Shown here in pieces: positions 11,367 through 53,999 of a stretch of 64,000 bases of DNA. The notes beneath the pieces were generated by a model. It saw only the letters and a list, made by a program, of their open reading frames with translations, had not been told where the DNA came from and searched no databases. The stretch comes from an uncultured Spirochaetales bacterium (GTDB lineage: Bacteria; Myxococcota_A; UBA9160; SMWR01), in NCBI GenBank assembly GCA_964653555.1, contig CAZZFT010000003.1:13642-77641 (forward strand), in the 5' to 3' direction. The translations under genes and the position numbers were made by a program. Position 1 is the stretch's first letter. Each line of letters opens with the position of its first letter.

Positions 11367-11382
11367 CTGACAATTCTATCAA
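11367..11382 (-). promoter_or_regulatory. Conserved 16-bp operator copy (TTGATAGAATTGTCAG on - strand)
   Basis: Matches the recurrent motif. Lies upstream of the 11-gene minus-strand operon and contains a TAGAAT -10-like hexamer. Confidence 0.65.
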
Positions 11383-11417
11383 CACAGTCGCATCATACGC
11401 CCGGGAGCGCCGCGAGT

Positions 11418-12380
11418 TCAACGGTCGACTGACGTCCCCGCGTAGAACTGCTGCGCCCAACGCCGGAAGGCGGGAATCGGCCCGTCCCCCTCGCACAGGG
11501 CGGGCTGGGCGCGGTAGCGCTTGTTCTCCCAGATCGCGAAGTCCTGCTCCACGACCTTCGCCTGCTCGTCCATCTGCGCCGTCAGGTCGGCGATCGCCTG
11601 CTCCTCCCCGCGCCCGTCCCGTCGCCCGATCACGCCGTGGAAGAGCTCGGTGACCTCGTCGTCGACCGGCGTGATCGCCGTGACGCTGAGCGTCGCGAAG
11701 GCGCCCGTGTAGTAGTTGGCGCAGTAGCCAAGCCCCCAGTTGTAGGCGCGCAGGTGGAGGTCGGTGCTGGGGCCGGCCACCGGGGAGTGCTCGTAGCGGG
11801 TGTCGATCCGCCAGGTGAAGAGCGGGCCCTCGAAGCTCTCGCTGCGATCGTCGGGAGCCGCCATCGAGTGGACCTGCGCGAAGTGGGGCCAGTCGATCGC
11901 GTTCTCCATGATCTCCTGGGGCTGGGTGCGCAGCGTCCACCGGTAGCGGATCCAGCGCGAGGTCCAGTCGGGCGAGCCGTACTCGGGCAGCTTCGGGATC
12001 TGCCACGAAGGCGGCTTGCCCTCGGCGTGGTGCCAGAGGTAGATGCGATCGTCCACCTCGCAGACGGGATAGCTCCGGGTGCGCGCCGCGGGCGGAATGC
12101 GCTTCGCGTAGGGGATCTCCACGCAGCGCCCGTCCCCGTTCCAGCGCCAGCCGTGGAAGGGACAGCGGATCGTCACGCCCTCGACGCGGCCGCCGACGCC
12201 GAGGTGGGCGCCCAGATGCGCGCAGTAGGCGTCGAGCACGCGCGCGGCCCCGCCCTGCTCGCGGAAGGCCACCAGCTCGCGGCCGAGGTAGCGCAGAGGC
12301 TTCACGTCGCCGGCGGCGAGCTCGTCGGAGTAGAGGATCTGGAACCAGCCGTTCGGCGTTCCGAAGGGGAATCGCGGCAT
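11418..12380 (-). CDS. Rieske [2Fe-2S] oxygenase, KshA/Nvd-like (paralog 1)
   Basis: PNGWF; CAHLG...CPFHGW Rieske motif; ENAIDWPHFxxVH and QDFAIW iron ligands. ATG at 12380. Confidence 0.9.
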   Translation of the reverse strand: MPRFPFGTPNGWFQILYSDELAAGDVKPLRYLGRELVAFREQGGAARVLDAYCAHLGAHLGVGGRVEGVTIRCPFHGWRWNGDGRCVEIPYAKRIPPAARTRSYPVCEVDDRIYLWHHAEGKPPSWQIPKLPEYGSPDWTSRWIRYRWTLRTQPQEIMENAIDWPHFAQVHSMAAPDDRSESFEGPLFTWRIDTRYEHSPVAGPSTDLHLRAYNWGLGYCANYYTGAFATLSVTAITPVDDEVTELFHGVIGRRDGRGEEQAIADLTAQMDEQAKVVEQDFAIWENKRYRAQPALCEGDGPIPAFRRWAQQFYAGTSVDR

Positions 12381-12454
12381 CTTCGCCTCCGTCCGCTGCA
12401 CCCGCTCGCGGAGACCGGCCTCTCGCACCCGGGGCGATCGCCGGCGCGGCGGAT

Positions 12455-12470
12455 CTGATAGGATACTCAG
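12455..12470 (+). promoter_or_regulatory. Conserved 16-bp operator copy (CTGATAGGATACTCAG)
   Basis: In the divergent Rieske/LLM intergenic region. Identical to the reverse complement of 38488-38503. Confidence 0.8.
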
Positions 12471-12499
12471 TTGAGGCCGAAGGCGATACCCGGGGCACG

Positions 12500-13513
12500 A
12501 TGATCCAGTTCCGACTCCGCTACGACCTGCGCTGTCCGGCAGCCCTGGGAAGCGACCCGGTCGCTCTCTACGCGGCTGCCCTCGCCCAGTGTCGCTGGGC
12601 CGATCGGCTCGGCTTCGAGTCCGTGATCCTCTCGGAGCACCACGGAGTCGAGGACGGCTACCTGCCCGCCGCGACGGTGTTCGGCGCCGCGGTGGCCGGC
12701 TGCACGCGCGGCCTGCGCATCCGGCTCGCGGCGCTCGTGGCCGCGCTCCACGATCCGCTGCGCCTCGCCGAGGAGCTCGCCGTGCTCGATCTCGCGAGCG
12801 GCGGAAGGCTGGACCTGGTGCTGGCCAACGGCTACGTGGCGGAGGAGTTCGCGATGTTCGGGCGCACCGTCGCCGAGCGCGCCCGCGCGGTGGAGGAGGC
12901 GGTCGAGGTGCTCGAGCGCGCGTGGAGCGGCCAGCCCTTCGTCCACCGCGGCCGCACGGTGCGCGTGACGCCGCGACCCGCGCAGCGTCCGCGCCCCCCG
13001 ATCTGGCTCGGTGGGTCGTCGCGGCCCGCCGCGCGACGCGCCGCGCGGATCGCCGACGGCTTCGCTCCCTCCACACCGGCGAGCTGGGAGGACTACCGTG
13101 AGGCGCTGCGCGAGCGCGGCGCGGCCGATCCCGGACCCCTCCCGCGCTCGGCGGGGGGCATGTTCCTGCACGTCGCGGAGGATCCCGACGCCGCCTGGGA
13201 GCGCATCGCGCCGCACGCGCTGCACGAGATGAACTCCTACGGCCGCTGGGCCGCGGCGTCGGGCGCGGACACCGGCTACGTCTCCGTCGAGGACGCGGAC
13301 GCGCTGCGCGCGCGCGGCCTGTATCGCGTGATCACGCCGAAGGCCTGCGTGGAGCTGCTCGCGAAGATGGGTGCGGGGGGCAGCTTCACGCTCCATCCCC
13401 TGATGGGCGGCCTCGATCCGGACCTCGCCTGGCAGAGTCTCGCGCTGATCGAGCACGAGGTGCTCCCGGCCCTCGATGCGGAGCTGCGGCCCGCACCCCG
13501 GCCCGGGGACTAG
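12500..13513 (+). CDS. LLM-class flavin-dependent oxidoreductase
   Basis: SEHH, DPLRLAEELAVLDLASGGR and PRPAQRPRPPIW motifs. Confidence 0.9.
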   Translation: MIQFRLRYDLRCPAALGSDPVALYAAALAQCRWADRLGFESVILSEHHGVEDGYLPAATVFGAAVAGCTRGLRIRLAALVAALHDPLRLAEELAVLDLASGGRLDLVLANGYVAEEFAMFGRTVAERARAVEEAVEVLERAWSGQPFVHRGRTVRVTPRPAQRPRPPIWLGGSSRPAARRAARIADGFAPSTPASWEDYREALRERGAADPGPLPRSAGGMFLHVAEDPDAAWERIAPHALHEMNSYGRWAAASGADTGYVSVEDADALRARGLYRVITPKACVELLAKMGAGGSFTLHPLMGGLDPDLAWQSLALIEHEVLPALDAELRPAPRPGD

Positions 13514-15474
13514 GGAAGCGGCAGCGCGAAGGCCACCAGGGCGTCGCCCGAGGCACTGAAGCCGTGCCCGCCCGCCGCGATCACCACGAACTGCCTGCCG
13601 TCGCGCCGGATGCGGTAGGTGAGCGGGGTGGCGTTGCCCGTGAAGGGCAGCCGGTGGCTCCAGATCTCCTCGCCGTCCGCCAGATCGAAGGCGCGCAGGA
13701 ACTTGTCCGTGGTGGCGGCGATGAACACGAGGCCCGAGGCCGTCACGATCGAGCCGCCGCCGAAGTTGGGCGTGCCCAGGCGCAGCCAGATCGGAAAGGG
13801 CGCCATGTCCCGCGTCGTCCCCAGCACCGACTCCCACCGCACTTCGCCGCTCGCGAGGTCCACCCCCACCAGCGTTCCCCAGGGCGGCGGATTGCAGGGA
13901 GCACCGAGCGGCGAGAGGACCGGCCCGCGGTAGGCGCCGTAGGGCGTTCCGCGCATCGGGTAGAACTCGAGGGGGAACCGGGCGACCTTCCGCTCGGGCA
14001 GCGTCTCGTAGATCTCGCGCGGGATCAGGCGCACCTCCGCGATCGCGCGGGTGACGTTGGCGACCAGGATGCCGGCGTGCGGCTCGAAGGCGATCCCGCC
14101 CCAGTTCATCCCCCCGGCCGGCCCGGGATACTCGAGCGTCCCTTCCTCGGTGGGCGGGGTGAAGATTCCGTCGTTGCGCAGCGACTCCAGCTTCTCCCGA
14201 CAGCGCCCGCGGTCCCAGAACGTGAAGCCGAACGCGTCCTCCGGCCCGACCCGCTGCGGATGGAGCGGCGGCGGATGGGTCGGGAAGGGCTGGGTGGGCG
14301 AGAGCGCCTCCCCCAGCGCGCCGCCCTGGGGCACGGGGCGCTCCTCCACCGGGTAGAGCGGGACGCCGGTCTCCCTGTCGAGCAGGAAGACGTTGCCGAC
14401 CTTCGTCGCCTGGGCCAGCGCCGGCACGCCGTTCGCCACCGCAGCGTCCTGGAAGAGCAGCGGCGCCGTGCCGACGTCGTAGTCCCAGACGTCGTGGTGC
14501 ACGGTCTGGAAGTGCCACGCGACGCCTCCATCTTCGAGGCGCAGCGCCACGACGGAGCTCGAGTAGTAGTCGAGTCCCTTGCGTTCGCCGCCGTAGAGGT
14601 CCGGCGCGGCGTTGCCGGTGGGAACGAAGACGAGCCCCCGCTCCGCGTCGCCCGACAGGATCGACCACACGTTGGGCGTGCCGGGAGCGTAGGCGGGGCC
14701 CCCGGACGTCTCCGGCCGCGACACCCCGGGCGGGACCGGGTCCCAGGCCCAGAGCAGGCGACCGCTCCGGGCGTCGAAGGCGCGCACCACGCCGCTCGGC
14801 GCATCGACGCGGACGTTGTCGGCCACGAAGGACCCCACCACCACGCGATCGCGCAGGACCAGCGGAGGGGAAGTGGTGTAGTACTCCCAGTCGGGGGCCT
14901 CGCCGATGCCCGCGCGCAGGTTCACGCGCCCCGCGGAGCCGAAGTCGGTGCAGGGCGCGCCCGTCCGCGCGTCGAGGGCGATCAGCTCCGAGTCCGTGGT
15001 CGCGGTGTAGATCCGCGCGCTGCAGACGGCGTCCTTCGGCGCCGCGGCGTCGCGCCAGTAGGAGACGCCGCGGCACGTGTAGAAGTAGGGCCCGCCGAGC
15101 CGCTCGATGCGGAGCTTCGGGTCGAAGGTCCAGCGCTCGGCGCCGGTCTCCGGGTCGAGGGCGATCACCCGGTTCAGGCCCGTGCAGAAGTAGAGCGTGT
15201 CGTCGACGACGATCGGCGTCGCTTCGAAGGTGGTGCGCGCCCCGCCGTCGCTGCCGTCGCGCACGTCGCCGTGGTGGTAGACCCAGGCGACGTCGAGGGC
15301 GTCCACGTTGCCGGGATCGATCTGGGTGAGCGGCGAGGCGTGCGTGTTGCCGGCGTCGCCGCCCTGCACGGGCCAGTCGGCGACCGGGCCCGAGTAGTCG
15401 ATCTCGACCGGCGCGCCGCAGCCCGAGAGCAGCGCGGCCGCCACCGCCGCGATCGCGAGACGTCCGGCGTCCAT
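13510..15474 (-). CDS. PQQ-dependent dehydrogenase (glucose/quinate family) with lipoprotein-like signal
   Basis: FEATP, CRGVSYW, VHHDVWDYD and CNPPPWG motifs; N-terminal LLSGC lipobox. Confidence 0.88.
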   Translation of the reverse strand: MDAGRLAIAAVAAALLSGCGAPVEIDYSGPVADWPVQGGDAGNTHASPLTQIDPGNVDALDVAWVYHHGDVRDGSDGGARTTFEATPIVVDDTLYFCTGLNRVIALDPETGAERWTFDPKLRIERLGGPYFYTCRGVSYWRDAAAPKDAVCSARIYTATTDSELIALDARTGAPCTDFGSAGRVNLRAGIGEAPDWEYYTTSPPLVLRDRVVVGSFVADNVRVDAPSGVVRAFDARSGRLLWAWDPVPPGVSRPETSGGPAYAPGTPNVWSILSGDAERGLVFVPTGNAAPDLYGGERKGLDYYSSSVVALRLEDGGVAWHFQTVHHDVWDYDVGTAPLLFQDAAVANGVPALAQATKVGNVFLLDRETGVPLYPVEERPVPQGGALGEALSPTQPFPTHPPPLHPQRVGPEDAFGFTFWDRGRCREKLESLRNDGIFTPPTEEGTLEYPGPAGGMNWGGIAFEPHAGILVANVTRAIAEVRLIPREIYETLPERKVARFPLEFYPMRGTPYGAYRGPVLSPLGAPCNPPPWGTLVGVDLASGEVRWESVLGTTRDMAPFPIWLRLGTPNFGGGSIVTASGLVFIAATTDKFLRAFDLADGEEIWSHRLPFTGNATPLTYRIRRDGRQFVVIAAGGHGFSASGDALVAFALPLP

Positions 15475-16512
15475 TCAGCGGCGGTCGTGGCGGACGGCCG
15501 GGTCGTCGCCGACGCGGACCAGCATCTTGCCCCGATTGCGGCCGACCAGCACCCCGATCAGCGCCTCGGCGGCCGACTCGATGCCCGGGAGGATCGTCTC
15601 CTCCGAGTGCAGCAGTCCCGCCTCGATCCAGGCGCTCACGTCCTCGCGGAAGCGCTCCATGCGGTGGGCGAAGTTGTTCACCGTGAAGCCCGCAACCGTG
15701 ACCTGTCGCGTGATCAGCTGGAACAGGTTGCTCGGTCCGGGCGGCGGCGTCGCGTCGTTGTACTGGGAGACCATGCCGCACAGCGCGATCCGCCCGAGCG
15801 GGCGGATGTGATCGATCGCCGCCTCGAGGTGACGACCTCCCACGTTGTCGAAGTACACGTCGATCCCGCCGGGACAGCACTCGCTCAACGCCTCTCCCGG
15901 GTCCGCGCTGCGGTAGTCGAAGCAGTGGTCGAAGCGCAGCACCTCGGTCACCCACTTCGCCTTCTCCGGTGAGCCCGCGCTTCCCACCACGCGACAGCCT
16001 CCGATGCGCGCGATCTGGCCGGCGATGCTGCCGACCGCCCCGGCCGCTCCGGAGACGAAGACGGTCTCGCCCGGCCGGATCTGCGCCACGTCGAGCACGC
16101 CCGCCCAAGCGGTGAGGCCGGTCATTCCGAGCGCGCCCAGATAGAGCGAGAGCGGCCGCTCCGGGCTCACGGGTTGCACCTCCGCGGCGCCGCACAGCGA
16201 CCACTCCCGGAAGCCCGCCATGTGCGTCACGCAGTCGCCGGGGGAGAGGCCCGGCACACGCGATTCCACCACCTCTCCCACGGCGCCGCCGTACAGGGGC
16301 TCGCCCACGCGGAAGGGAGGCAGCAGGTAGTCCTCGTCGTCGCGCATCAGGCCGCGCATGAAGGGATCGACGGAGAGATGGACGTTGCGGACCAGCACCT
16401 GCCCCTCGCCCGGCGAGGGGACGGCCACCTCGGCGAGCGCGAAGTCCTCCGGCTGGGGCGCGCCGGCGGGGCGCCGGCGCAGCTGCACCTCGCGGCTTCG
16501 GCGGTCGGACAC
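15475..16512 (-). CDS. NADP-dependent oxidoreductase (MDR, prostaglandin/alkenal reductase type)
   Basis: LSVDPFMR, LGMTGLTA, VSGAAGAVG and YFDNVGG motifs. Confidence 0.92.
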   Translation of the reverse strand: MSDRRSREVQLRRRPAGAPQPEDFALAEVAVPSPGEGQVLVRNVHLSVDPFMRGLMRDDEDYLLPPFRVGEPLYGGAVGEVVESRVPGLSPGDCVTHMAGFREWSLCGAAEVQPVSPERPLSLYLGALGMTGLTAWAGVLDVAQIRPGETVFVSGAAGAVGSIAGQIARIGGCRVVGSAGSPEKAKWVTEVLRFDHCFDYRSADPGEALSECCPGGIDVYFDNVGGRHLEAAIDHIRPLGRIALCGMVSQYNDATPPPGPSNLFQLITRQVTVAGFTVNNFAHRMERFREDVSAWIEAGLLHSEETILPGIESAAEALIGVLVGRNRGKMLVRVGDDPAVRHDRR

Positions 16513-16560
16513 GGGATCTCCTCGACCGGGCGCAGATCGCGTCCCCCGGCTCGCTCACTG

Positions 16561-16576
16561 TTGATACTATGCTCAG
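16561..16576 (+). promoter_or_regulatory. Conserved 16-bp operator copy (TTGATACTATGCTCAG)
   Basis: In a divergent intergenic region; overlaps a TATGCT -10-like hexamer. Confidence 0.75.
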
Positions 16577-16614
16577 AACCGGTCCGAGGGCAACGAGAAT
16601 CGCAGGAGGCGGCG

Positions 16615-17148
16615 ATGGCTGACAGGGAGACGCGCGATCCGGCAGTCCAGGAGCTGTTGGACAAGCAGGCGATCCACGAGGTGCTGATGCGCTACTGCCG
16701 CGGCGTCGATCGGCGCGACGAGGATCTCCTGTGCAGCGTGTTCCACCCCGACGCGCTGGACGAGCACGGTGTCTTCGACGGCAATGCCCTCGAGTTCGCA
16801 CACATGGCGGTGGACATGCTGAAGCAGTTCACCGCGACCTCGCACATGATCCTGAACGAGTACGTCCAGCTCGAGGGAGACTCGGCGCACGTCGAGTCCT
16901 ACGTGCTGGCGAGCCACCGCTCCGAGCGCGACGGGCGCAAGATCGACATGACCATGGGAGCCCGCTACGTGGACCGCTTCGAGCGGCGCGGAGGTGAGTG
17001 GCGGATCGCCCATCGCGCCGTGGTGCACGACTGGAACCGCGAGCAGACGGTCGAGGCGGAGTGGCCCGAGGCGATCCGCTTCATCCAGGGCCGCCGGGAC
17101 CGAAGAGACCGCTTCTACCGCCCCGACCGGGCGCCCGTTTCTTCTTGA
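16615..17148 (+). CDS. NTF2/SnoaL-like protein
   Basis: YCRGVDRRD...FHPDA and RYVDRFERRGGEWRI motifs. AGGAGG RBS before the ATG at 16615. Confidence 0.88.
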   Translation: MADRETRDPAVQELLDKQAIHEVLMRYCRGVDRRDEDLLCSVFHPDALDEHGVFDGNALEFAHMAVDMLKQFTATSHMILNEYVQLEGDSAHVESYVLASHRSERDGRKIDMTMGARYVDRFERRGGEWRIAHRAVVHDWNREQTVEAEWPEAIRFIQGRRDRRDRFYRPDRAPVSS

Positions 17149-17212
17149 GTCATATGTCAGCTGCGACTAGGCTGGCGCGGCGGGCGCGGCGCCGCCCGGG
17201 AGGCCGATCCAG

Positions 17213-19273
17213 GTGACGGTGGACCGCTACCCCCATCTGCTCTCCCCGCTGCGGATCGGTCCGGTCCGGGTGCGCAACCGGATCCTCCAGAGCGCGCACG
17301 AGAAGTTCTTCCACCAGCGCGACGGGCTCACCACCCGGCGCGACCTGCACTACCAGCGCGAGCGCGCCGAGGGGGGCGCGGGGCTGCTGATCACGGGGCA
17401 CCGGCCGGTGCATCCGACCTCGCCGCCGCCCTCCCGCGGCTTCCCCTTCGGCTACCGCAAGGAGTTCGCTCGCGCGGAGCGCGCGGTCACCGCAGCCGTG
17501 CACGAGGCCGGCGCCGCGATCTTCGCGCAGATCAACCACGTGGGGATGTGCGGCTCCGGCAGCGCTCTCGACGACTACCGCTTCCTGCTGGCGCCCTCCT
17601 CCTTCGCCTCGGTCGCCTTCAACGAGACACCGAAGGCGATGGAGGAAGCGGACTTCGCGATGCTGGAGCAGGCGTTCGCGGACACCGCCGCGGTGGCCTG
17701 CGAGAGCGGATACGACGGCGTCGAGCTCCACATGGCCAACGGCTACCTGCTCCACCAGTTCATGACCCCCGTCTACAACAAGCGCCGCGACGAGTACGGG
17801 GGCTCGCTCGACGGCCGCCTGCGCTTCCCGCTGCGCGTGCTCCGGGCGGTGCGCGAGCGGGTAGGCCGCGACGTGGCCCTCGGCGTGCGGCTCTCGGTCT
17901 CCGACATGATGGCCGGGGGGCTCGAGGCCGAGGAGTGGGCGGAGATCGCCCAGCGCATCGAGGCGACCGGTTGGATCGACTTCGTCGACACCAGCGCCGG
18001 TACCTACAACAGCGGCGCGTGGTCGGTGACGCCGGGCGATCTGGAGCGAGGCTGGGCGCTCGAGCGCGCCGCGCTGCTCAAGAAGGCACTGCGCGCGGTC
18101 CCGCTGTTCGCGGTCGGAGGGATCGGCGACCCGGAGATGGCGGAGCGCGCGATCGCCACCCAGGCCGCCGACATGGTGGCCATGACCCGCGCGCTGATCG
18201 CCGACCCGGCGCTGCCGCGCAAGCTCGCCGAGGGGCGCGAGTCGGAGATCGTCCACTGCATCCGCTGCAACCAGGGCTGCACCGGACGAATCGTGCTCGG
18301 CCGCCCGGTCACCTGCATTCTGAACCCGGCCGCCGGACGCGAGGAACGCTTCGGCGGCGCGCCCCGGCCGGCGCACACTCCCGGGCGCTGGGTGGTGGTG
18401 GGCGGCGGGCCGGCGGGAATGAAGGCCGCGGCGGGCCTGGCCCAGCGCGGGCACCGGGTGACGCTGCTCGAGCGCGAAGGCGAGCTCGGCGGGCAGGTGC
18501 GCTGGATCCTGGCGACGCCGCGCCGCGACGGCTTCGCCCATCTCGTTCGGGATCTCGCGGGCGAGCTCGCGCGGCGCCGGGTCGAGGTGCGGCTCGGTGT
18601 CGCCGCCGACGAGGCGTCGGTGCTCGCCCTGGCGCCCGACGGCGTCGTGCTGGCGACCGGCTCCCGGCCCGAGCGCAGCGGTCGCAGCCCCGTCGCGCCC
18701 GAGGTGGACGTGCTGCCGGGCCTGGAGCTCTCGCCGCTGCTGACCGGCCTCGACGCCCTGCGCGATCCCGAGCGCGTCGGACACCGGGTGCTGCTGCTCG
18801 ACGACGAGGGCAGTCGTTATGCGCTCGGTGTCGCGGAGAAGCTGGCGCAGGACGGCCACGAGGTGCACGTGGTCACGCGCTTCAACGCGATCGGTCCCGC
18901 GACCGCCGTCACCCTCGACCAGGGCGTACTCTACGCGGCGCTGTTCGGGCTCGGCGTGGTCTTCGAGACGAACCACTGGGTGCGCCGCCTCGAGGCCGAC
19001 GGGGCCCTGGTCTACAACCTCTACACCGGAGTCGAACGGCGCCTGGAGGGCTTCGACTCGGTGGTGCTGGTCGGGGCCCACGTGCCCGAGGACGAGCTCC
19101 ATCACGCGCTGGCCGGGCGCGTCGCGCGGCTGCACCGGATCGGCGACTGCCTCGCGCCGCGTCGCCTCGATCAGGCGCTCTACGAGGGATTCCTGGCGGG
19201 TCGGGAGCAGCTCGACCTTCCGGAACGCTTCATCGACGTGGGAGAGCTGGAAGGTCCGCTCCCCGCGCCCTAG
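17213..19273 (+). CDS. NADH:flavin oxidoreductase (OYE-like) with FAD domain, FadH/TMADH type
   Basis: GYLLHQF, NKRRDEYGGS, CIRCNQGC Fe-S motif and VVGGGPAG. Confidence 0.9.
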   Translation: MTVDRYPHLLSPLRIGPVRVRNRILQSAHEKFFHQRDGLTTRRDLHYQRERAEGGAGLLITGHRPVHPTSPPPSRGFPFGYRKEFARAERAVTAAVHEAGAAIFAQINHVGMCGSGSALDDYRFLLAPSSFASVAFNETPKAMEEADFAMLEQAFADTAAVACESGYDGVELHMANGYLLHQFMTPVYNKRRDEYGGSLDGRLRFPLRVLRAVRERVGRDVALGVRLSVSDMMAGGLEAEEWAEIAQRIEATGWIDFVDTSAGTYNSGAWSVTPGDLERGWALERAALLKKALRAVPLFAVGGIGDPEMAERAIATQAADMVAMTRALIADPALPRKLAEGRESEIVHCIRCNQGCTGRIVLGRPVTCILNPAAGREERFGGAPRPAHTPGRWVVVGGGPAGMKAAAGLAQRGHRVTLLEREGELGGQVRWILATPRRDGFAHLVRDLAGELARRRVEVRLGVAADEASVLALAPDGVVLATGSRPERSGRSPVAPEVDVLPGLELSPLLTGLDALRDPERVGHRVLLLDDEGSRYALGVAEKLAQDGHEVHVVTRFNAIGPATAVTLDQGVLYAALFGLGVVFETNHWVRRLEADGALVYNLYTGVERRLEGFDSVVLVGAHVPEDELHHALAGRVARLHRIGDCLAPRRLDQALYEGFLAGREQLDLPERFIDVGELEGPLPAP

Positions 19274-19274
19274 G

Positions 19275-19304
19275 GCGGCGGGTCCCAAGTTGGGACCGCG
19301 CCGC
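19275..19304. other. Intergenic stem-loop
   Basis: GCGGCG-GGTCCCAA / TTGGGACC-G-CGCCGC inverted repeat with no U-tract. Confidence 0.4.
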
Positions 19305-19341
19305 TCGACGAGATCCATCGACGAACAGGAGGGAAGATCCC

Positions 19342-19731
19342 ATGGCGAAGGACGCATTCGACGTCGCAACCCGTTTCTTCGGAGCGATCGAGGCCGGAGA
19401 CGTGGACGAGGTGAGGGACGTGTACGCACCGGACGTGGTGATCTGGCACAACACCGACGACATCGAGAAGACCCGCGAGGAGAACCTGGCGACGCTGACC
19501 TGGGCGATCGAGAACGTCGAGGGCCTGCGCTACGAGAACGTGCGCCGCTATCGCATCGACGGCGGCTTCGTGCAGCAGCACACCTGCCGCGGCCGCCATC
19601 GCAAGAACGGCAAGGAGATGATCCTGCCCGCGGTGGTCGTGTGTCAGGTGAAGAACGGCCACATCACCCGCCTCGACGAGTACTTCGACTCCACCCAGGC
19701 GCCCGAAGGTGTGCCGGCCGTGGAACGGTGA
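19342..19731 (+). CDS. NTF2/SnoaL-like (ketosteroid isomerase-like fold) protein
   Basis: YAPDVVIWHN, GFVQQH and ITRLDEYFDS motifs; AGGAGG RBS. Confidence 0.87.
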   Translation: MAKDAFDVATRFFGAIEAGDVDEVRDVYAPDVVIWHNTDDIEKTREENLATLTWAIENVEGLRYENVRRYRIDGGFVQQHTCRGRHRKNGKEMILPAVVVCQVKNGHITRLDEYFDSTQAPEGVPAVER

Positions 19732-20682: not shown

Positions 20683-20689
20683 CGCTCTA

Positions 20690-43138: not shown

Positions 43139-43148
43139 CCGGTGCGCG

Positions 43149-45194: not shown

Positions 45195-45214
45195 GAGCCG
45201 CCGGGAGGAATCCG

Positions 45215-46336: not shown

Positions 46337-46391
46337 TGCGTCGACGCCTCGGGCCCCGGGCACGGCGGGGACGGGAGCGGGAGGTGACCGG

Positions 46392-47189: not shown

Positions 47190-47204
47190 CGACCGCGCGC
47201 CGAT

Positions 47205-47666
47205 TCAGCCGCGCGCGGGCAGGGAGCGCTCGGCGACGGTCTCCTCGGTGCGCCAGACGCTGGTGAGCTCGAGTCGCCGGATCCGCCAGCCCGCCGACCC
47301 GCGCACCAGGGAGTGGCGATACACGGCGCCCTCAGTGATGCGCAGCTCGCCCTCGGGCTGCGGCGCGACGAGCCGCGCCCACAGGCTCACCCGCGTGCGC
47401 GCCGAGTCGCCCGCCAGGTCGACGCGCAGGTTCGAGAGCAGATGCTGGCTGGCCGCGATCGGCGTCATCGATTCTTCCAGGAAGGCGAGCACGGCGTCGC
47501 GTCCCTCGAAGCTGCCGAACCCGTCGTAGTGGCAGGCGACGTCTTCGGTGAAGACGCGCTCGGCGAGGCCCTTCCAGTCGTGGTCGTCGACGCAGGTCGC
47601 GTACTCGGTCAGGAGATCGGAGATCGCCTGGCGGTCCCGCAGGTCGCGCACGTCCGTTTCGCCCAT
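47205..47666 (-). CDS. NTF2/SnoaL-like protein
   Basis: DRQAISDLLTEYATCVD, SQHLLSN and GWRI motifs. Confidence 0.87.
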   Translation of the reverse strand: MGETDVRDLRDRQAISDLLTEYATCVDDHDWKGLAERVFTEDVACHYDGFGSFEGRDAVLAFLEESMTPIAASQHLLSNLRVDLAGDSARTRVSLWARLVAPQPEGELRITEGAVYRHSLVRGSAGWRIRRLELTSVWRTEETVAERSLPARG

Positions 47667-47678
47667 TCCGATGGCTCC

Positions 47679-48551
47679 TCAGCCGACCCGCGCGATGACG
47701 CGGTCGGCGAAGTCCTCGAGCGCCCGGCGCTTGTCGTCGATCGACGAGCTGGGCTTCCCGAGCTGGAAGGCCAGCGGCCACAGCACCGCGTCCACGCCCA
47801 GGTCGGCGCAGCGGCGCGCGTCCTCCACCGTGGGAAGACTGGCGAGCGGCACGAGCACGGAGAACGGCTCCCGGCTGCGCCCGGCCTCGCGACGCAGCGC
47901 GTCCAGGCGCCGCGTCCAGTCCTCGACTTCGCTCACGTCGCAGCCGGAGGCGATCCAGCCGTCCCCGAGCCGGGCCGCCCGCCGCAGCGCCGGCTCGCTC
48001 TGGCCGCCGATCCAGATCGGGATCGGCTCCGCGGGCGTGGGGTGCATCCAGATCGGATCGAAGTCGAAGAAGCGGCCGTGGTGCTCCACCGGACCGCCCG
48101 AGGCCCACAGCTTCCGCATCACCTCGATCATCTCGTCGGTGCGGCGACCGCGCGTGTGGAAGTCCCGGCCGAGCTGGTCGAACTCCTCCTTCATCCAGCC
48201 CACGCCCGCACCCAGGGCGACGCGGCCGCCGGCGATCCGGGACACGGTGGCCAGCGACTTCGCCACCTCGAGCGGATGGCGCAGCGGCAGGATCATCACC
48301 GCGTGGCTGAGCCACAGCGTCCGGGTGGCGCCACCGATCGCGGCGAGCAGCGCTCCCGGCTCGAGCCACGGCGTGTCCTTGGCGAAGCCCGGCTTGCCGT
48401 CCTCCGAGTAGGGATAGGCCGACGCCATCTTCTCCGGATAGAAGAGATGGTCCGAGGCGACGACGCCGTGGAAGCCGACCGCCTCGGCGATCCGCGCGAC
48501 CTCGACGATCTGCTCGGGCTCGGTGTGGGACAGTGCTTGCCAGAATCTCAT
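47679..48551 (-). CDS. LLM-class oxidoreductase, probable F420-dependent type
   Basis: SDH, LPLRHPLEVAK, GVGWMKEEF and ALRRAARLGDGW motifs. Confidence 0.88.
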   Translation of the reverse strand: MRFWQALSHTEPEQIVEVARIAEAVGFHGVVASDHLFYPEKMASAYPYSEDGKPGFAKDTPWLEPGALLAAIGGATRTLWLSHAVMILPLRHPLEVAKSLATVSRIAGGRVALGAGVGWMKEEFDQLGRDFHTRGRRTDEMIEVMRKLWASGGPVEHHGRFFDFDPIWMHPTPAEPIPIWIGGQSEPALRRAARLGDGWIASGCDVSEVEDWTRRLDALRREAGRSREPFSVLVPLASLPTVEDARRCADLGVDAVLWPLAFQLGKPSSSIDDKRRALEDFADRVIARVG

Positions 48552-48576
48552 CCGGATCCCTCCGACTCGCCGCGGC

Positions 48577-49977
48577 TCAGCGGGAGCCCTCTCGCCGGCG
48601 CTCTGCGAGCTGTTCGCAGATCTGCTGGTGAACCGCCTCGGTCAGGCGGAAGCGGGTGAACATCGCGATCCCGATCAGGAAGGCGACGCAGGGGACGATT
48701 CCGTAGAGGGCGCGCAGGGCGAGCTTCGTCGCCTCGGTCTGCTCCGCGTTCGCCTGGTAGCCGACCCACTGCATCACTCCACCGACCAGGATCACCATGA
48801 TCCCCGAGGCGCTCTTCACCACGAAGTTCAGAGCGGCGAAGTAGGCGCCCTCCTTCCGCTCGCCCGTCTCGTACTCGTCGTGGTCGACGACGTCGGCCTG
48901 GATCGCGGGGGCGATTGCCTGGGCACAGCCTCCGGCCACGCCGTTCACGATCGACAGCACGATCACGTACCAGGCACCCCCCTCCCAGACGAAGAACAGC
49001 GCGCCGTAGCCCGCGGCGCTGACCGACATCGACGCCAGCCACAGCGTCCGCTTGGGGTAGCGGTGGGCGAGCGCCACCCAGATCGGAATCGTCGCGATCT
49101 GGGGCAGGAAGTAGGCCAGGAAGGAGGCCTCCATGATGTCGGGCATCTTCACGACGTAGAGCACGATGAAGGGCTTGAGCACACCGAGCGCGCCGATCCC
49201 GAGGATCTCGACGAAGTAGACCCCGAGCAGGAGTCGGCCGTGGGGATTGCGCCAGACGTCGCGATAGGCGCGCATCGGGCTCGATCCGCCGCGATGACGG
49301 AAGTCGGGCCGCTCGCGGAGTCGCGACACGGACCATCCGGTCACCAGCACGATCAGCGCACCCACGCCGAGCGACAGCCACAGGCCGGCCTGGCGCGGAT
49401 CGGCGGCGCTGCGCAGCACGTACAGGCCGCCCGTGAAGGCGAACAACGACCCGATCGCGCGCAGCCCGCCGCGCGCGCCGAAGATGCGGGCGCGGTCCTC
49501 GCGCCGGGAGGAGAGCTCCGCCCCGAGCGCGTAGTGGGGCACCTCGAAGATGGTGAGGGCCGCCATGTAGCCGAAGACGGCGATCGTCACCCACGCGGTG
49601 AGCCAGCCGCCCGCGAGCGCGTCGGGAGGGCTCCACACCATCACCGAGGTGACCACGAAGGCCAGCGCCGAGGCGAGGATCCACGGCCGGCGACGCCCCG
49701 ACCGGAGCGTGGTGCGATCGCTCAGGTATCCGGCCAGGGGATCGGTGACGGCGTCCCACACCCGGGAGAGGCCGAAGATCAGGCTGATCGTCGCCGGTGC
49801 CATCAGCAGCACATCCGTGCCGAAGCGCACGAAATAGGTGAAGACGAGCTGCGTCATGAAGAACACCGGGATCAGCGGCGCCGCGTAGGCGGCGATCGTC
49901 GACGCCGGGAGCCGGACCTCGGCGGCCGCGGGCGCTGCGGCGACGCGCGCCGTCGCGGTCGATCCGATCGAGCTCAT
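48577..49977 (-). CDS. MFS transporter (GPH/MelB-like)
   Basis: Multiple TM helices; DAVTDPLAGYLSD, GRRRPWI and ERKEG motifs. Confidence 0.9.
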   Translation of the reverse strand: MSSIGSTATARVAAAPAAAEVRLPASTIAAYAAPLIPVFFMTQLVFTYFVRFGTDVLLMAPATISLIFGLSRVWDAVTDPLAGYLSDRTTLRSGRRRPWILASALAFVVTSVMVWSPPDALAGGWLTAWVTIAVFGYMAALTIFEVPHYALGAELSSRREDRARIFGARGGLRAIGSLFAFTGGLYVLRSAADPRQAGLWLSLGVGALIVLVTGWSVSRLRERPDFRHRGGSSPMRAYRDVWRNPHGRLLLGVYFVEILGIGALGVLKPFIVLYVVKMPDIMEASFLAYFLPQIATIPIWVALAHRYPKRTLWLASMSVSAAGYGALFFVWEGGAWYVIVLSIVNGVAGGCAQAIAPAIQADVVDHDEYETGERKEGAYFAALNFVVKSASGIMVILVGGVMQWVGYQANAEQTEATKLALRALYGIVPCVAFLIGIAMFTRFRLTEAVHQQICEQLAERRREGSR

Positions 49978-50066
49978 CAGTCCACCTCGTTCGGGTTGGG
50001 AACGGGTCGCGCCCCCGTCGCGAACTCCCTGCGACGGCGAGCATCGGATCGCCAGGCCCGGCTATA

Positions 50067-50082
50067 CTGAGCATCCTATCAG
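50067..50082 (-). promoter_or_regulatory. Conserved 16-bp operator copy (CTGATAGGATGCTCAG on - strand)
   Basis: In the divergent MFS/thiolase region; overlaps TATACT (50063-50068). Confidence 0.8.
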
Positions 50083-50125
50083 AACGACTGGACCCCAGGT
50101 CCAGGATTATCGGAGGAAGATCGAG

Positions 50126-51355
50126 ATGGCCGAGGCGTGGATCATCGACGGCGTGCGCTCGCCGCGCGGGCGGGGCAAGCCGGGCAAGGGTGGGCTCGCC
50201 CATCTCCATCCCCAGCGCGTCCTCGCGCAGGTGCTGAACGCGCTGCGCGACCGGGTCGGATTCGACCCCGCGGAGGTCGACGACGTCGTCGTCGGCTGCG
50301 GAGCCGGAAACGGCGACCACGCACACGACATCGCCCGCATGTCGGTGCTCGACGCGGGATGGTCGACCGCGGCTCCGGGCGTCACCCTGCACCGCTTCTG
50401 CGGCTCGGGACAGCAGGCGGTGAACTTCGCCGCCATGGGCATCCTCGCCGGCCATCAGGACCTGGTGATCGGAGGCGGTGTCGAATCCATGTCCCGCTAC
50501 GCGCCGCTGCACGCGCACGGCTTCCACGCCAACAACGAGCACCTGTTCCGGCGCCATCCGATGGTTCCCCAGGGCATCTCCGCCGACCTGATCGCGACAC
50601 TGGAGGGGTTCACGCGCGAGGACTGCGACCGCTACGCGGTGCGCAGCCAGGAGCGCGCGGCCGCCGCCATCGCCGACGGCCGCTTCGACCGCAGCCTGGT
50701 CCCGATCCACAACGAGGACGGCTCCCTCGCCCTCGACCGCGACGAGCATCCGCGGGCGGGCACCACGCCCGAGAGCCTCGCCCAGCTACCGGCCTCCTTC
50801 GAGAAGATGGGCACGACGGTGATGGAGGGCTACGAAAAGAGCTTCGACGAGCTGTGCCGCGACGTGTACCCGCAGATCGACAAGGTCGACCACGTGCACC
50901 ATGCGGGCAACTCGTCCGGGGTGGTGGACGGCGCCAGCGCGATCCTGCTCGCCTCGCCGGAGTACGCGCGCGCCCACGGTCTCGCGCCGCGGGCGCGGAT
51001 CGTGATGACGGCCACGGTGGGCACCGAGCCCGTGATCATGCTCACCGCCCCGGAGCCGGCGGCACGCGCCTGCCTCGAGCGCGCCGGCATGGGCTACGGC
51101 GACATCGATCTATTCGAGGTGAACGAGGCCTTCGCATCGGTGGTGCTGAAGTTCCTCAAGGACTCGGGCGTCGACCCGGAGCGCGTCAACCCCAACGGCG
51201 GCGCGATCGCCCTCGGCCACCCGATCGGCGGCACCGGACCGATGCTCATCCAGACCGTGCTCGACGAGCTGGAGCGGCGCGATCTCGCCACCGGCCTGGT
51301 CACGATGTGCACCGGCGGCGGGATGGGCACGGCGACGATCATCGAGAGGATCTGA
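50126..51355 (+). CDS. Acetyl-CoA C-acyltransferase (thiolase)
   Basis: RFCGSG, NEAF, GHPIG and MCTGGG motifs. Confidence 0.93.
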   Translation: MAEAWIIDGVRSPRGRGKPGKGGLAHLHPQRVLAQVLNALRDRVGFDPAEVDDVVVGCGAGNGDHAHDIARMSVLDAGWSTAAPGVTLHRFCGSGQQAVNFAAMGILAGHQDLVIGGGVESMSRYAPLHAHGFHANNEHLFRRHPMVPQGISADLIATLEGFTREDCDRYAVRSQERAAAAIADGRFDRSLVPIHNEDGSLALDRDEHPRAGTTPESLAQLPASFEKMGTTVMEGYEKSFDELCRDVYPQIDKVDHVHHAGNSSGVVDGASAILLASPEYARAHGLAPRARIVMTATVGTEPVIMLTAPEPAARACLERAGMGYGDIDLFEVNEAFASVVLKFLKDSGVDPERVNPNGGAIALGHPIGGTGPMLIQTVLDELERRDLATGLVTMCTGGGMGTATIIERI

Positions 51356-51367
51356 GCGGGTCGCGGA

Positions 51368-52156
51368 TCAGTGGAAGTGGTGACCGCAGTTCACGTTCAG
51401 GGCCTGGCCGGTGATCCCGCGCGCGAGGTCCGAGGCCATGAACACGACTGCGTCGGCCACCTCCTCGGGGCGCGCGATCCGGCGCAGCGGTAGCTGATCG
51501 GCGACCGCCCGCTCGAGCGCCTCGGCCGTCGTGCCCTGCTCCGACGCCATCTGCTCGAAGTAGGCGGCGACCCCGGGACCCCAGATGTAGCTGGGGACGA
51601 TCGCGTTGACGCGGATGCCGTAGCGGCCCACCTCGAGGGCGAGCGTGCGCGTGGCGGCGTGGAGCGCCCCCTTCGAGGCGACGTAGGGGCCATGGCGCTC
51701 GAAGGGAATCCGGATCTCGGTGGTGTTGATCATCACGATCGCGCCCCGGGAGCGCCGGCGCATGTGCGGGATCACCGCCCGGGACAGGCGCAGGGAGCCG
51801 AGCAGGTTGACCCGCATCGGCTCGAGCCAGGCGTCGGCGTCGAGGTCGGCGTCCTCGATCGGGGTGTCGAGGTCACCGGTGGTGAAGGCGCTGTTCACGA
51901 GGACGTCGATGCGACCGAAGCGCTCCTGGGCCGCGGCGACGAGGCGGTCGCAGTCTTCGGCAGCGGAGACGTCCGTCACGACGCAGTGCGCGCGCCCGCC
52001 GACCGACTCGACCTCCTTGGCGACCGACTCGAGGCGCTCGGCGCTGCGCGCCGCGAGCACGACGTTCGCGCCCTCGCGACCGAAGGCGAGCGCCATGCCC
52101 CGTCCGAGGCCGGGACCGATTCCCGTGATGATGCAGCAGCGGTCGTGGAGCAGCAC
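51368..52156 (-). CDS. SDR family oxidoreductase
   Basis: TGIGPGLG, VNSA and YVASK motifs. Confidence 0.9.
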   Translation of the reverse strand: MLLHDRCCIITGIGPGLGRGMALAFGREGANVVLAARSAERLESVAKEVESVGGRAHCVVTDVSAAEDCDRLVAAAQERFGRIDVLVNSAFTTGDLDTPIEDADLDADAWLEPMRVNLLGSLRLSRAVIPHMRRRSRGAIVMINTTEIRIPFERHGPYVASKGALHAATRTLALEVGRYGIRVNAIVPSYIWGPGVAAYFEQMASEQGTTAEALERAVADQLPLRRIARPEEVADAVVFMASDLARGITGQALNVNCGHHFH

Positions 52157-52168
52157 GGCGTCTCCGCG

Positions 52169-52963
52169 TCAGTGGAAGTAGCCCCCGCAGTTCACGTCGA
52201 GCGACTGCCCGGTGACGATGCGGGAGAGGTCCGAGGCGAAGAAGACGACCGCGTCGGCCACCTCGCTCGCATCGACCAGACGGTGAAGGGCGTGCTCCTC
52301 GCGCAGACGATCCCGCAGCACCTCCTCGGCGGATCCTTCCCGCGCGGCGCGTGCCTCGAGAGCGGCGCGCAGGTGCGGCCCCTCGATCCAGCCCGGAACG
52401 ACCGTGTTCACGCGAATGCCGTGGGGCCCGAGCTCGCGGGCGAGCAGCCGCGCGGCCGCCAGCAGCGCGCCGCGCGCGAGGAGCACCGGTCCGGCGCCTT
52501 CGAGAGCGAGGCGCTCTTCGACGGAACCGATCATCACGATCGAGCCGCTGCCCAGCCGGCGCATCGCCCGCGCCACCTCCTGGGCGAGGGCGAGCGCCTC
52601 GAACACCTCCCCCTCGAGCGCGCGCCGCCAGGAGGCGAGGTCCGCCTCCGCGGTCTCCTCGGCCGCGGGCGTGCCCCGGGGCGGCCCGAGCACGAGCGCG
52701 TCGATGCGGCCCCAGGTCTGGACGGCCGTCTCCACCAGCCGGCGGCCCTCGCCGGCCTGCGACAGGTCCGCGGTGAGCGCGGTCGCGCTTCCGCCCTGCG
52801 CGCGGATCCCGGCGACCGCCTCCGCCAGGGCGTCGCTGCGCGGCCCGACCAGCACCAGGCGCGCTCCCTCGCGCGCCAGGGCCGAGGCGACGGATGCCTC
52901 CAGCTCCGGGCCGAGCCCGACCACCAGGGCGACGCGTTCGGTCAGCAGCCCGGCCTCCGGCAT
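52169..52963 (-). CDS. SDR-fold protein lacking canonical catalytic residues
   Basis: Paralog of the downstream SDR. GLGPELE replaces the Gly loop and VLLAR replaces YxxxK. Confidence 0.8.
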   Translation of the reverse strand: MPEAGLLTERVALVVGLGPELEASVASALAREGARLVLVGPRSDALAEAVAGIRAQGGSATALTADLSQAGEGRRLVETAVQTWGRIDALVLGPPRGTPAAEETAEADLASWRRALEGEVFEALALAQEVARAMRRLGSGSIVMIGSVEERLALEGAGPVLLARGALLAAARLLARELGPHGIRVNTVVPGWIEGPHLRAALEARAAREGSAEEVLRDRLREEHALHRLVDASEVADAVVFFASDLSRIVTGQSLDVNCGGYFH

Positions 52964-52970
52964 CGTCCCC

Positions 52971-53939
52971 TCAGTCCCCGCCCGCGCCGGCCGACGACGG
53001 CCCGTAGAACTGCCGCGCCCAGCGCCGGTACTCGCCGATCGGCCCGTCGCCGTCGCACAAGACCGGCGTCGGCCGATAGGTCTTGTTCTCCCAGATCGCG
53101 AAGTCCTGGGAGGTGATGTGCTGCTGCTCGTCCATCTGGGTGCGCAGCTCGGCCAGGGCCTCCTGCTCGCTGCGGGAGCCCTTCCGACCGATCACGGAGT
53201 TCGTGAAGCGTACGAGGCCCTCGTCGATCGGCGTGATCGTTCCGATGCTGCGCGTCTCGAAGGCTCCGTTGTAGTGGATCGTGTTGAAGCCGAGCCCCCA
53301 GTTCTCGGCCACCAGGTACAGCTCGCGACTGGGACCGCCCACCTCGTTCTCGTAGCCCGCATCGATCACCCAGCGGAACATGGGCCCCTCGAAGGAGCAC
53401 TCGCGGTGGCTCGGCACGTCCATCGCGTGCACCTGCTCGAAGTGCGGCCAGTCGATCGCGTTCTCCATCATCTCCTGGGGATGGGTGCGCAGCTCCCAGC
53501 TGTACCGGGTCCAGGTGGAGGTCCACTCGGCCGCGCCGTACTCCGCGATCCGCGGGATCCGGAAGCTCGGCGGCTCGCCACCGGCGTGGTGCCACACGTA
53601 GACCTGTCCGTTCCGCTCTTCGACGGGCCAGGAGCGGATGCGTGCTCGGGGCGGAATCCGACGCGCGTAGGGAATCTCGAGGCACTCGCCCTTCGCGTCG
53701 TAGCACCAGCCGTGGAAGGGACAGCGGAGGCGGTTGCCCTCCACGCGGCCGCCGTGCCCGAGATGTGCGCCGAGATGCGCGCAGTAGGCCTCCACCACGG
53801 CGGCCTCTCCGTCCTCGCCCCGAAACAGCACGAGCTCCTGACCGAACACGTGGATCGGCAGCAGCGCGCCGGGCGCCAGATCCTCGGAGAAGGCGATCTG
53901 GAACCAGCCGTTGGGCATGGCCAGTGCGTGAGCCGCCAT
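52971..53939 (-). CDS. Rieske [2Fe-2S] oxygenase, KshA/Nvd-like (paralog 3)
   Basis: PNGWF, CAHLG...CPFHGW, ENAIDWPHFEQVH and QDFAIW motifs. GAGGAGG RBS before the ATG at 53939. Confidence 0.9.
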   Translation of the reverse strand: MAAHALAMPNGWFQIAFSEDLAPGALLPIHVFGQELVLFRGEDGEAAVVEAYCAHLGAHLGHGGRVEGNRLRCPFHGWCYDAKGECLEIPYARRIPPRARIRSWPVEERNGQVYVWHHAGGEPPSFRIPRIAEYGAAEWTSTWTRYSWELRTHPQEMMENAIDWPHFEQVHAMDVPSHRECSFEGPMFRWVIDAGYENEVGGPSRELYLVAENWGLGFNTIHYNGAFETRSIGTITPIDEGLVRFTNSVIGRKGSRSEQEALAELRTQMDEQQHITSQDFAIWENKTYRPTPVLCDGDGPIGEYRRWARQFYGPSSAGAGGD

Positions 53940-53983
53940 CGGTTCTGTGCCCCTCCTCGCGAAGCCGGACTCCATCGTGACTT

Positions 53984-53999
53984 CTGATAATACGCTCAG
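53984..53999 (+). promoter_or_regulatory. Conserved 16-bp operator copy (CTGATAATACGCTCAG)
   Basis: In the divergent Rieske/TetR region. Confidence 0.75.

Follow-up and report, generated by a model that had tools for sequence, protein, structure and literature searches.

A recurrent 20-bp box as the likely operator of a LuxR/HapR-type TetR protein in the catabolic island of an uncultured bacterium

Contig C3 (CAZZFT010000003.1; 109,585 bp) from the assembly of an uncultured Spirochaetales bacterium (GCA_964653555.1; 5.56 Mb in 327 contigs) carries a short box that recurs between its genes. The stretch under study, termed the window, comprises 64,000 nucleotides and corresponds to bases 13642-77641 of this contig; a preliminary description had reported nine copies of a 16-bp pseudo-palindromic operator in it. 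We consider it likely that this motif is the core of a 20-bp operator read by a LuxR/HapR-type TetR-family protein, which is encoded in the window itself at 54266-54931 (+) and would act as the one ligand-released repressor of a ~95-kb catabolic island. This proposal is carried by computed results on the box statistics, the family of the protein, the association of its clade with the box in other genomes, and the covariation of protein and DNA.

Results

The box recurs in the intergenic regions of a single contig

The pattern TGATA-N6-TCA has nine matches in the window, compared to a mean of 0.12 and a maximum of two in 100 dinucleotide-preserving shuffles. None of the shuffles reached nine, so the recurrence is unlikely to be a product of chance, as had been argued. 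The 16-mer CTGATAGGATRCTCAG, allowing up to three mismatches, yields eight matches, at eight of the nine sites, against 0.39 expected; the G+C content of the window is 68-75%. A pattern search recovered all nine sites of the preliminary description at its positions and on its strands. Reading of the matches confirmed that neither TGATA nor TCA varies, that position 9 is always A, and that the copies at 12455 (+) and 38488 (-) share the same 16-mer. All nine are intergenic according to our gene calls, which were made by a codon-usage scorer of our own trained on the long open reading frames of the genome; seven lie between divergent genes and two (11367 and 45179) between tandem genes.

The extent and the number of the sites had to be revised. 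Although the 16-bp unit does recur, it is only the core of a 20-bp site, an imperfect palindrome with the local consensus nTKCTGAyA-N6-TCAGrA. The information is confined to these 20 bp, and the identity of the flanks (0.29-0.30) is at the level expected by chance (0.287), so the box is not a dispersed repeat element. The nine listed sites are all real, but the list missed two weaker boxes in the window, at 17143-17162 (-) and 59333-59352 (-). Position matrices brought the total for the contig to 17 boxes, of which 11 fall in the window; the 17 occupy 16 intergenic regions that extend from C3:10156 to C3:104939 over ~95 kb. All 17 are intergenic, where the intergenic share of the contig is only 5.7%. 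A matrix built from 16 C3 boxes scores these sites at 23.8-34.8 bits, and the top site of the whole genome outside the training set, again intergenic and on C3 (59333-59352), reaches 20.6 bits.

Scanning of the whole genome revealed that the motif is concentrated on C3. TGATA-N6-TCA occurs in 14 places, 12 of which are on this contig, which makes up 2% of the genome; the motif is therefore specific to the locus rather than general to the organism's promoters. Off-contig sites score at most 20.0 bits with the C3 matrix. The G+C content of the contig (0.714) is close to that of the genome (0.712). In the window, boxes occupy 11 of the 17 non-convergent intergenic regions of at least 40 bp and 7 of the 10 divergent regions. 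The earlier claim of one repressor for most operons thus stands as far as one regulator at most of the promoter-capable regions is concerned, whereas the repressing sign is a prediction from promoter geometry, discussed below. The promoter regions without a box include those of an Atu-like operon and of a 2-oxoacid dehydrogenase E1/E2-Lrp pair, and each of these sub-clusters has a regulator of its own, a FadR-like TetR and an Lrp/AsnC protein, respectively.

The candidate regulator is a distant relative of LuxR and HapR

The protein encoded at 54266-54931 (+) comprises 221 residues, with an alanine in its recognition helix where Vibrio LuxR has Asn55. Its Pfam match to TetR_N is weak. Among solved structures, its top 18 matches are all LuxR, HapR, SmcR or OpaR (E values of 3e-25 to 1e-18), whereas the next TetR follows at 6e-11. 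A profile of seven sequences of its clade matches LuxR, HapR and SmcR near full length at 4e-48 to 2e-41, compared to 3e-13 for the next TetR. The best NCBIfam match is the HapR model NF040929, with 82.5 bits (82.4 bits in the whole-genome search) against an equivalog cut-off of 350 bits, which indicates a distant relationship to LuxR/HapR rather than orthology with the quorum-sensing regulator. The genome has no other strong member of the LuxR/HapR-type family.

A second, weaker match to the HapR model (47.6 bits), on contig C79, was discarded; it has a different palindrome upstream and no box. Membership in the KstR family was likewise rejected, as the candidate regulator scores 25.5 bits with NF033703, for which the cut-off is 280. 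The Rfam Qrr model has no match in the genome, nor in any of 14 control genomes.

The stretch between the box and the start codon of the TetR gene is unusually long (264 nt); the reading frame is free of stop codons from 54074 onward and includes a GTG at 54137. The extension of the frame upstream of the start resembles no relative, and the long leader (53940-54270) contains no inverted repeat and has no Rfam match.

The same type of box lies upstream of homologues in other genomes

TetR homologues with 31-45% identity are encoded in 5 of 40 related genomes. At three of these five loci, the homologue is immediately preceded by TGAyA-N6-TCA boxes, as a single copy or as two copies, whose spacing differs between loci; this variation points to an operator unit and argues against a -35/-10 pair. 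A wider scan, with one genome per species, found 76 homologous loci. Three of them (L047, L083 and L086) were left out, because the match starts deep inside the protein or at the edge of the locus with no usable upstream sequence, giving 73 loci. According to their record titles, the 76 loci come from metagenome-assembled genomes of Myxococcota, Binatia, a 'delta proteobacterium' and Gammaproteobacteria, and from Solimonas soli and Sphingobium algorifonticola.

At 52 of the 73 loci, the 330 bp that precede the homologue contain the loose pattern TGA-N8-TCA, at a density of 2.78 per kb compared to 0.14 per kb in the rest of the loci, where the matches mostly lack the outer arms. The core of this search was taken from the motif of the present genome, and the outer flanks, which are conserved as TTAT...ATAA in the foreign boxes, were not part of the pattern. 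Boxes with at least five of eight outer flank matches were classed as strict (TTATTGATA-N4-TGTCAATA type). There are 57 strict boxes in 24,090 bp of upstream sequence, at 49 of the 73 loci, against nine in 742,495 bp elsewhere, a ~195-fold difference; moreover, six of these nine precede the gene ahead of TetR in the same operon. The 20-22-bp dyad box of the family, TTATTGATA-N4-TATCAATAA, is hence found for the clade within 330 bp upstream at these 49 loci. The consensus of 61 unique foreign sites is TTATTGATAAAATTGTCAATAG.

A weight matrix made from the foreign boxes only, applied to the whole genome of the present organism, placed C3 sites at 7 of its 10 best places, and an eighth of these ten is a site on contig C76; it also exposed the TGACA-type boxes, which are invisible to a TGATA-first pattern. 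The closest TetR relative found, on a metagenome contig, is 49% identical, and has alanine at the Asn55 position together with a CTGATA...GTCAC-type box. The choice of the TetR gene near 54284 as the candidate regulator in the preliminary description is thus backed by its LuxR/HapR-type membership and by the conservation of the same box type upstream of its homologues.

The foreign loci typically have one or two boxes between the TetR homologue and a single divergent gene. The upstream neighbour could be called at 58 of the 73 loci, and at 29 of these the divergent partner is an AurF-like diiron oxygenase gene (e.g. L012:3446-4582 (-)), which hints at the ancestral target of the clade and perhaps also at its ligand pathway. 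The present genome has four AurF-like genes, located elsewhere (contigs C37, C50, C31 and C30) and without boxes. Further strict boxes within 6 kb of the foreign homologues are few, and tblastn of the contig proteins against 79 foreign loci found no conserved target set beyond paralogues of short-chain dehydrogenases/reductases (SDRs) and luciferase-like monooxygenases (LLMs).

A loose form of the motif was run on 41 related genomes and is too degenerate for those of lower G+C content, so only the counts of the six same-genus genomes were used; they have 4, 4, 1, 4, 1 and 2 matches compared to 15 here, with 0-3 for a reversed-pattern control. These six genomes, several of which are incomplete, show no motif excess, no close TetR orthologue (two matches, with 31% and 39% identity) and no syntenic copy of the island segment (best match 68% over 0.66 kb, at the level of paralogues). 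In the same-genus genomes searched, none of the three, island, orthologue or motif excess, was thus found. Regulator, boxes and island hence occur as a set, with a regulon that appears to have expanded in this lineage.

The box corresponds to the Vibrio LuxR/HapR site

Except for the LuxR-DNA crystal structure, the Vibrio papers are cited here from excerpts. The foreign consensus TTATTGATAAAATTGTCAATAG is the published box of V. alginolyticus LuxR, TTATTGATAAATTTATCAATAA, which has a 9-4-9 layout (PMC8034623), and it also matches the HapR arms YTATTGA...AATAR (PMC2677876). In the alignment, position p of the 16-mer equals position p+3 of the 22-bp Vibrio box and p+2 in the 21-bp numbering of V. 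harveyi, a map that rests on the letters named in the text of the V. harveyi paper, all of which fit the alignment. The invariant bases T2 G3 A4. A6 and T13. A15 of the 16-mer accordingly become T4 G5 A6. A8 and T15. A17. The five most deleterious substitutions reported for V. harveyi LuxR (G5T, A6C, A8G, T15C and A17C) fall on these bases, whereas the five most benign ones include T3C and A18G (PMC2628434), which are the exact departure of the local CTGA...TCAG from TTGA...TCAA. For SmcR, T4, A17 and possibly position 11 matter (PMC8191795), the last of which corresponds to the invariant A9 of the 16-mer. The core TGAyA-N6-TCA and its spacing, though not the outer TTAT/ATAA arms, are kept across the 17 local boxes; box 11 is a TGATG variant.

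The base beside TGA varies together with one residue of the protein. The crystal structure of LuxR bound to DNA shows the Asn55 side chain in contact with the methyl group of T4/T19', the thymine just outside TGA (PMC8034623). Among the arms of the foreign boxes, counted without boxes that have fewer than four A/T in the central eight bases, this position is T in 58 of 64 arms with phenylalanine at the Asn55 position, 24 of 24 with histidine, 27 of 32 with valine and 5 of 8 with asparagine. The fractions are 3 of 12 with alanine (four loci), 0 of 4 with leucine (one locus) and 2 of 6 with serine (two loci). In the present genome, where the TetR protein has alanine, the 34 arms of the 17 boxes have C in 23 cases, T in 8, G in 2 and A in 1. 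The change from T to C beside TGA, paired with that from asparagine to alanine, is the pattern that a direct protein-DNA pairing would predict.

Promoter geometry suggests repression

The boxes lie mostly near the middle of short divergent regions of 71, 102, 131, 148, 155 and 156 bp. The nearest start codons are 18-57 nt away, and most of them are preceded by Shine-Dalgarno-like sequences. Since both promoters of such a short spacer must overlap a box in its middle, this arrangement favours repression. Box 8 ends 18 nt before an ATG, with only the Shine-Dalgarno-like GGGAGG in between, and must therefore cover the start site or the -10 of that gene. A scan with the sigma-70 consensus found three promoter-like sites against 0.4 expected in 11000-22000, and one against 0.5 expected in 38000-54500; two of these four touch a box, which is suggestive only. 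One of the two, TTGAAC-18-TATGAT at 11421-11392 (-), ends 8 nt upstream of box 1 and places this box on the expected transcription start; the other, also on the minus strand, has its -10 (TATTAT) inside box 10 and would serve the Rieske gene at 52971-53939. Both predictions favour repression, as does the single box in 15 of the 16 regions, which resembles Vibrio-repressed promoters in the excerpted data of PMC8034623. The dyad in the divergent promoter region shared by the TetR gene and a Rieske gene (box 10), together with the central boxes of the 71-156-bp regions, is the operator placement of a repressor. The orientation of the boxes gives no usable signal: the two tandem-region sites among the nine point at the downstream gene, and of the two added tandem-region sites one points the opposite way and one can be read both ways. 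No conserved -35 or other flank signal was found around the boxes.

On these grounds, a dimer of the TetR protein would recognise the 20-bp imperfect palindrome and block RNA polymerase at both flanking promoters. The predicted targets are ~45 genes, which encode KshA-like Rieske oxygenases, LLMs, SDRs, amidohydrolases, SnoaL-like proteins and beta-oxidation enzymes; the MFS_2 transporter, the TonB-dependent receptor and the TetR protein itself would belong to the same repressed set. A substrate or intermediate may serve as the ligand that releases the protein from its boxes.

Several observations weigh against this proposal. The gene starts rest on our own codon-usage caller. The TetR protein falls far below the NCBIfam cut-off for HapR (82.5 vs 350 bits) and is only 31-49% identical to the homologues used. 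A proximal box is missing at 21 of the 73 homologous loci, four of which carry one farther away, 1.3-1.6 kb upstream. The boxes of this genome do not share the outer TTAT/ATAA arms of the family and have a weak right half-site, and asymmetric sites are associated with activation in Vibrio, as far as the excerpts tell (PMC8191795, PMC8034623). Between the protein's own box and its start codon lie 264 nt, more than the distance to the divergent Rieske gene, so autoregulation would be weaker here than in the relatives. The covariation was noticed after the fact and comes from few, non-independent lineages, with four alanine loci besides this genome. In addition, a -10 inside the box is present in only 7 of 17 boxes. 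The preliminary description had several sites overlapping -10-like hexamers; this holds for seven of its nine sites (TAnnnT at positions 5-10) and fails as a general property of the 17, and it may stem from the A/T-rich spacer, a constant feature of the family box.

The same protein and boxes might instead serve an activator or a dual regulator, as in Vibrio LuxR/HapR, which we regard as unlikely. Both activation and repression are known for the family (PMC8191795, PMC2628434, PMC8034623), and activated Vibrio sites are described as keeping only one good 9-mer arm (PMC8034623), similar to the strong left and weak right arms of the local boxes; the lack of a conserved -35 at a fixed distance would also suit activator-dependent promoters. 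The left/right asymmetry is in part a product of the orientation of the sites in the analysis, though, and, at 18-57 nt from start codons with Shine-Dalgarno-like sequences, the boxes leave too little room to serve as upstream activator sites. The same excerpts give a median of three sites for activated Vibrio promoters (PMC8034623), compared to the single box in nearly all regions here, and a central box in a short divergent region is the classical layout of a repressor.

It is improbable that the boxes are operators of another DNA-binding protein encoded elsewhere, such as an acyl-homoserine lactone (AHL)-type LuxR, with only a coincidental link to the TetR protein. The lux boxes of AHL-type LuxR proteins follow CTG-N10-CAG, a frame with which CTGA-N8-TCAG would be compatible, and the search for regulators was confined to 97 of the 100 contig genes. 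Nevertheless, no LuxR/GerE-type or other further regulator was found among these 97 Pfam-scanned genes. The association of TetR and box is independent in 49 of the 73 foreign loci, the matrix from these loci recovers the island boxes, and both the map of critical bases and the covariation at Asn55 and T4 fit the TetR protein.

Even less probable is a mere promoter element that needs no dedicated regulator, either an extended -10 (TGnTAnnnT) of the housekeeping sigma factor or the mark of an alternative one. TGATAnnnT stands in one register in seven of the nine original sites, and both tandem-region sites among them point toward the downstream gene. Over all 17 boxes, however, TAnnnT is kept in that register in only seven, and the T at the last -10 position is variable, yet the TCA six bases further is invariant. 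There is neither a -35 nor a flank signal around the boxes, hardly any copies of the motif occur in the remaining 98% of the genome, and the same box type tracks the TetR clade in other phyla at variable spacing. The extended -10 reading of TGATAGGAT was rejected as the main explanation on the link to TetR, the missing flank signal and the seven of 17. That the boxes arose by chance, or are left over from a dispersed repeat or mobile element, has only the repetition itself in its favour and is negligible in view of the shuffles, the flanks at chance identity and the intergenic position of every box.

Genes flanking the boxes

Box 1 (11365-11384, -) lies between the tandem genes of a KshA-like Rieske protein (11418-12428, -) and an SDR (10523-11314, -). 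Box 2 (12453-12472, +) is at the centre of the 71-bp region between this Rieske gene (-) and a divergent LLM gene (12500-13513, +). The 102-bp region around box 3 (16559-16578, +) separates an oxidoreductase/PQQ alcohol dehydrogenase operon (-) from an operon for SnoaL, old yellow enzyme (OYE), SnoaL and nitroreductase proteins (+). Within the latter, the newly found box 4 (17143-17162, -), a TGACA variant, lies between the SnoaL gene, which ends at 17148, and the OYE gene, which starts at 17213. Box 5 (21727-21746, +) occupies a 155-bp divergent region between enoyl-CoA hydratase (ECH)/EthD genes (-) and Amidohydro_2/SnoaL genes (+). Box 6 (38486-38505, -), whose 16-mer is identical to that of box 2, is located in a 131-bp divergent region between an Abhydrolase_10 gene (-) and an ECH/Rv3169-family/APH operon (+).

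Box 7 (44174-44193, +) lies in the 156-bp divergent region between KshA-like Rieske/LLM genes (-) and an SDR gene (+), and box 8 (45177-45196, +) in a tandem region, 18 nt before the start codon of an Amidohydro_2 gene (45215-46336). Box 9 (50065-50084, -) sits in a 148-bp divergent region between an MFS_2(GPH)/LLM/SnoaL operon (-) and a thiolase gene (+). Box 10 (53982-54001, +) is 42 nt from a KshA-like Rieske gene (-) and 264 nt from the divergent TetR gene (+). Box 11 (59333-59352, -), newly found as well, lies between the Lrp/AsnC gene and the gene of a secreted protein (59402-60412) with no family assignment.

For each of the three KshA-like Rieske paralogues (11418-12428, 43149-44123 and 52971-53939, all -), the start lies 24-50 nt from a box, opposite to its TGATA-first direction. 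No reductase or ferredoxin partner was noticed adjoining these genes.

Three candidate sites lie off the island. The best of them, at C76:11582-11603 (18.8-20.0 bits), is located between SDR and Amidohydro_2 genes in the same pair order as around box 8, and is probably an 18th site of the regulon. The candidate on contig C29, flanked by an MFS gene and the gene of another TetR, is probably a site of that TetR itself; the one on C7 is upstream of a carboxylesterase gene.

Gene content of the island

By gene content, assigned by a Pfam scan of 97 of the 100 called genes and an NCBIfam scan of ten, contig C3 is a catabolic island. The best NCBIfam match of the three KshA-like Rieske oxygenases is 4-beta-methylsterol monooxygenase, far under the cut-off. 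The contig further encodes many LLMs, SDRs, Amidohydro_2 and SnoaL-like proteins, in addition to OYE, PQQ alcohol dehydrogenase, ECHs, acyl-CoA dehydrogenases, a thiolase and acyl-CoA synthetases. Prominent in this set are KshA-like Rieske oxygenases, flavin/F420-type monooxygenases and beta-oxidation genes, and the island probably serves polycyclic or terpenoid-like substrates. Transport is represented by an MFS_2/GPH transporter, a TonB-dependent receptor and TonB/ExbBD, and the TonB system together with its receptor indicates a Gram-negative host.

Only three regulators were found among the 97 scanned genes: the candidate regulator, the FadR-like TetR (25516-26190) inside the Atu-like operon, and the Lrp/AsnC protein (58776-59261), which is divergent from the 2-oxoacid dehydrogenase E1/E2 pair. 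The Atu-like block (24730-34321, +) consists of genes for ECH, the FadR-like TetR, biotin carboxylase, biotin carboxyl carrier protein, carboxyltransferase, SDR, AtuA, LLM and ECH. Its 131-bp divergent promoter region has neither a box nor an inverted repeat; inverted repeats were sought in the boxless regions 24590-24740 and 58610-58785, and none was found.

Three paralogues of ~330 residues are 59-83% identical and have a signal-peptide-like N-terminus, with no Pfam or NCBIfam match. They are encoded at 59402-60412 (+) of the window, C3:78360-79358 (+) and C3:89953-90924 (-), two of them directly behind boxes, and may be uptake or surface proteins of the island. Because the leader that follows box 7 has a tRNA-like appearance, ARAGORN was run; it predicted no tRNA in the window, and Rfam at gathering thresholds gave no match there. 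Apart from the sequencing run that may be the source, three runs contain DNA nearly identical to window 44100-54000 (58-67% of sampled words); each belongs to a different study, with wetland or salt marsh metagenome as the label.

Discussion

The system resembles three known ones in different respects. The Vibrio proteins LuxR, HapR, SmcR and OpaR are the best solved relatives of the TetR protein, near full length, and their box, as the excerpted papers describe it, is built alike: six bases separate TGAyA from TCA within a 9-4-9 dyad, and the critical bases are the same. As in the Vibrio regulons, many promoters are marked (17 boxes), which is unusual for TetR proteins. By contrast, the host is an uncultured non-Vibrio bacterium, and the predicted targets are catabolic enzymes and transporters instead of group-behaviour genes; the local box has nTKC in place of the outer TTAT arms, with C next to TGA, and the protein has alanine in place of Asn55.

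KstR and KstR2 are TetR-family regulators of steroid catabolism in actinobacteria, with many operators in the short divergent regions of large catabolic clusters, which include genes for KshA-type Rieske oxygenases, ECHs, acyl-CoA dehydrogenases and thiolases. The present system shares with them a TetR-family protein, the many putative operators in short divergent regions and the large catabolic cluster. It differs in TetR subfamily (25.5 vs 280 bits for the KstR model; E values of ~1e-10 for KstR2 structures), in operator sequence and in its Gram-negative host.

With classical local repressors of the TetR/tetA type, the candidate regulator has in common the helix-turn-helix domain, a dyad operator and a box in its own divergent promoter region. 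Most foreign homologues have exactly this local layout, whereas here 17 boxes are spread over ~95 kb and no AurF-like partner is adjacent.

The cited Vibrio papers, in the parts used here, present LuxR/HapR-type TetRs as peculiar to Vibrio, with degenerate sites and regulons of unusual size (PMC8191795, PMC2628434, PMC2677876, PMC8034623). Our literature search on HapR-type TetRs outside Vibrio found no description of members, which is not proof that none is in print. We tentatively suggest, as a possibility that falls a little short of probable, that a widespread, uncharacterised clade of non-Vibrio LuxR/HapR-type TetRs keeps the 9-4-9 box and normally acts as a local regulator beside an AurF-like gene. 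In the present organism, a member of this clade would have become the master switch of a ~95-kb island, re-tuned by an exchange of the Asn55 equivalent for alanine that is matched by T to C in the box.

If this is true, the quorum-sensing master regulators of Vibrio would originate among ordinary ligand-sensing catabolic repressors, and alanine at the Asn55 position with C beside TGA would be a natural specificity-switch pair; the covariation of Asn55 and T4 bears on how the LuxR/HapR subfamily reads DNA. For this uncultured bacterium, an anonymous motif has turned into a testable regulon with one named regulator gene, 17 mapped boxes and ~45 putative target genes, and the box can be used in annotation to delimit the regulon of the island. 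Altogether, the same box architecture accompanies distant homologues in several phyla, mostly in local settings and once across an island, and provides an evolutionary context for the Vibrio regulators.

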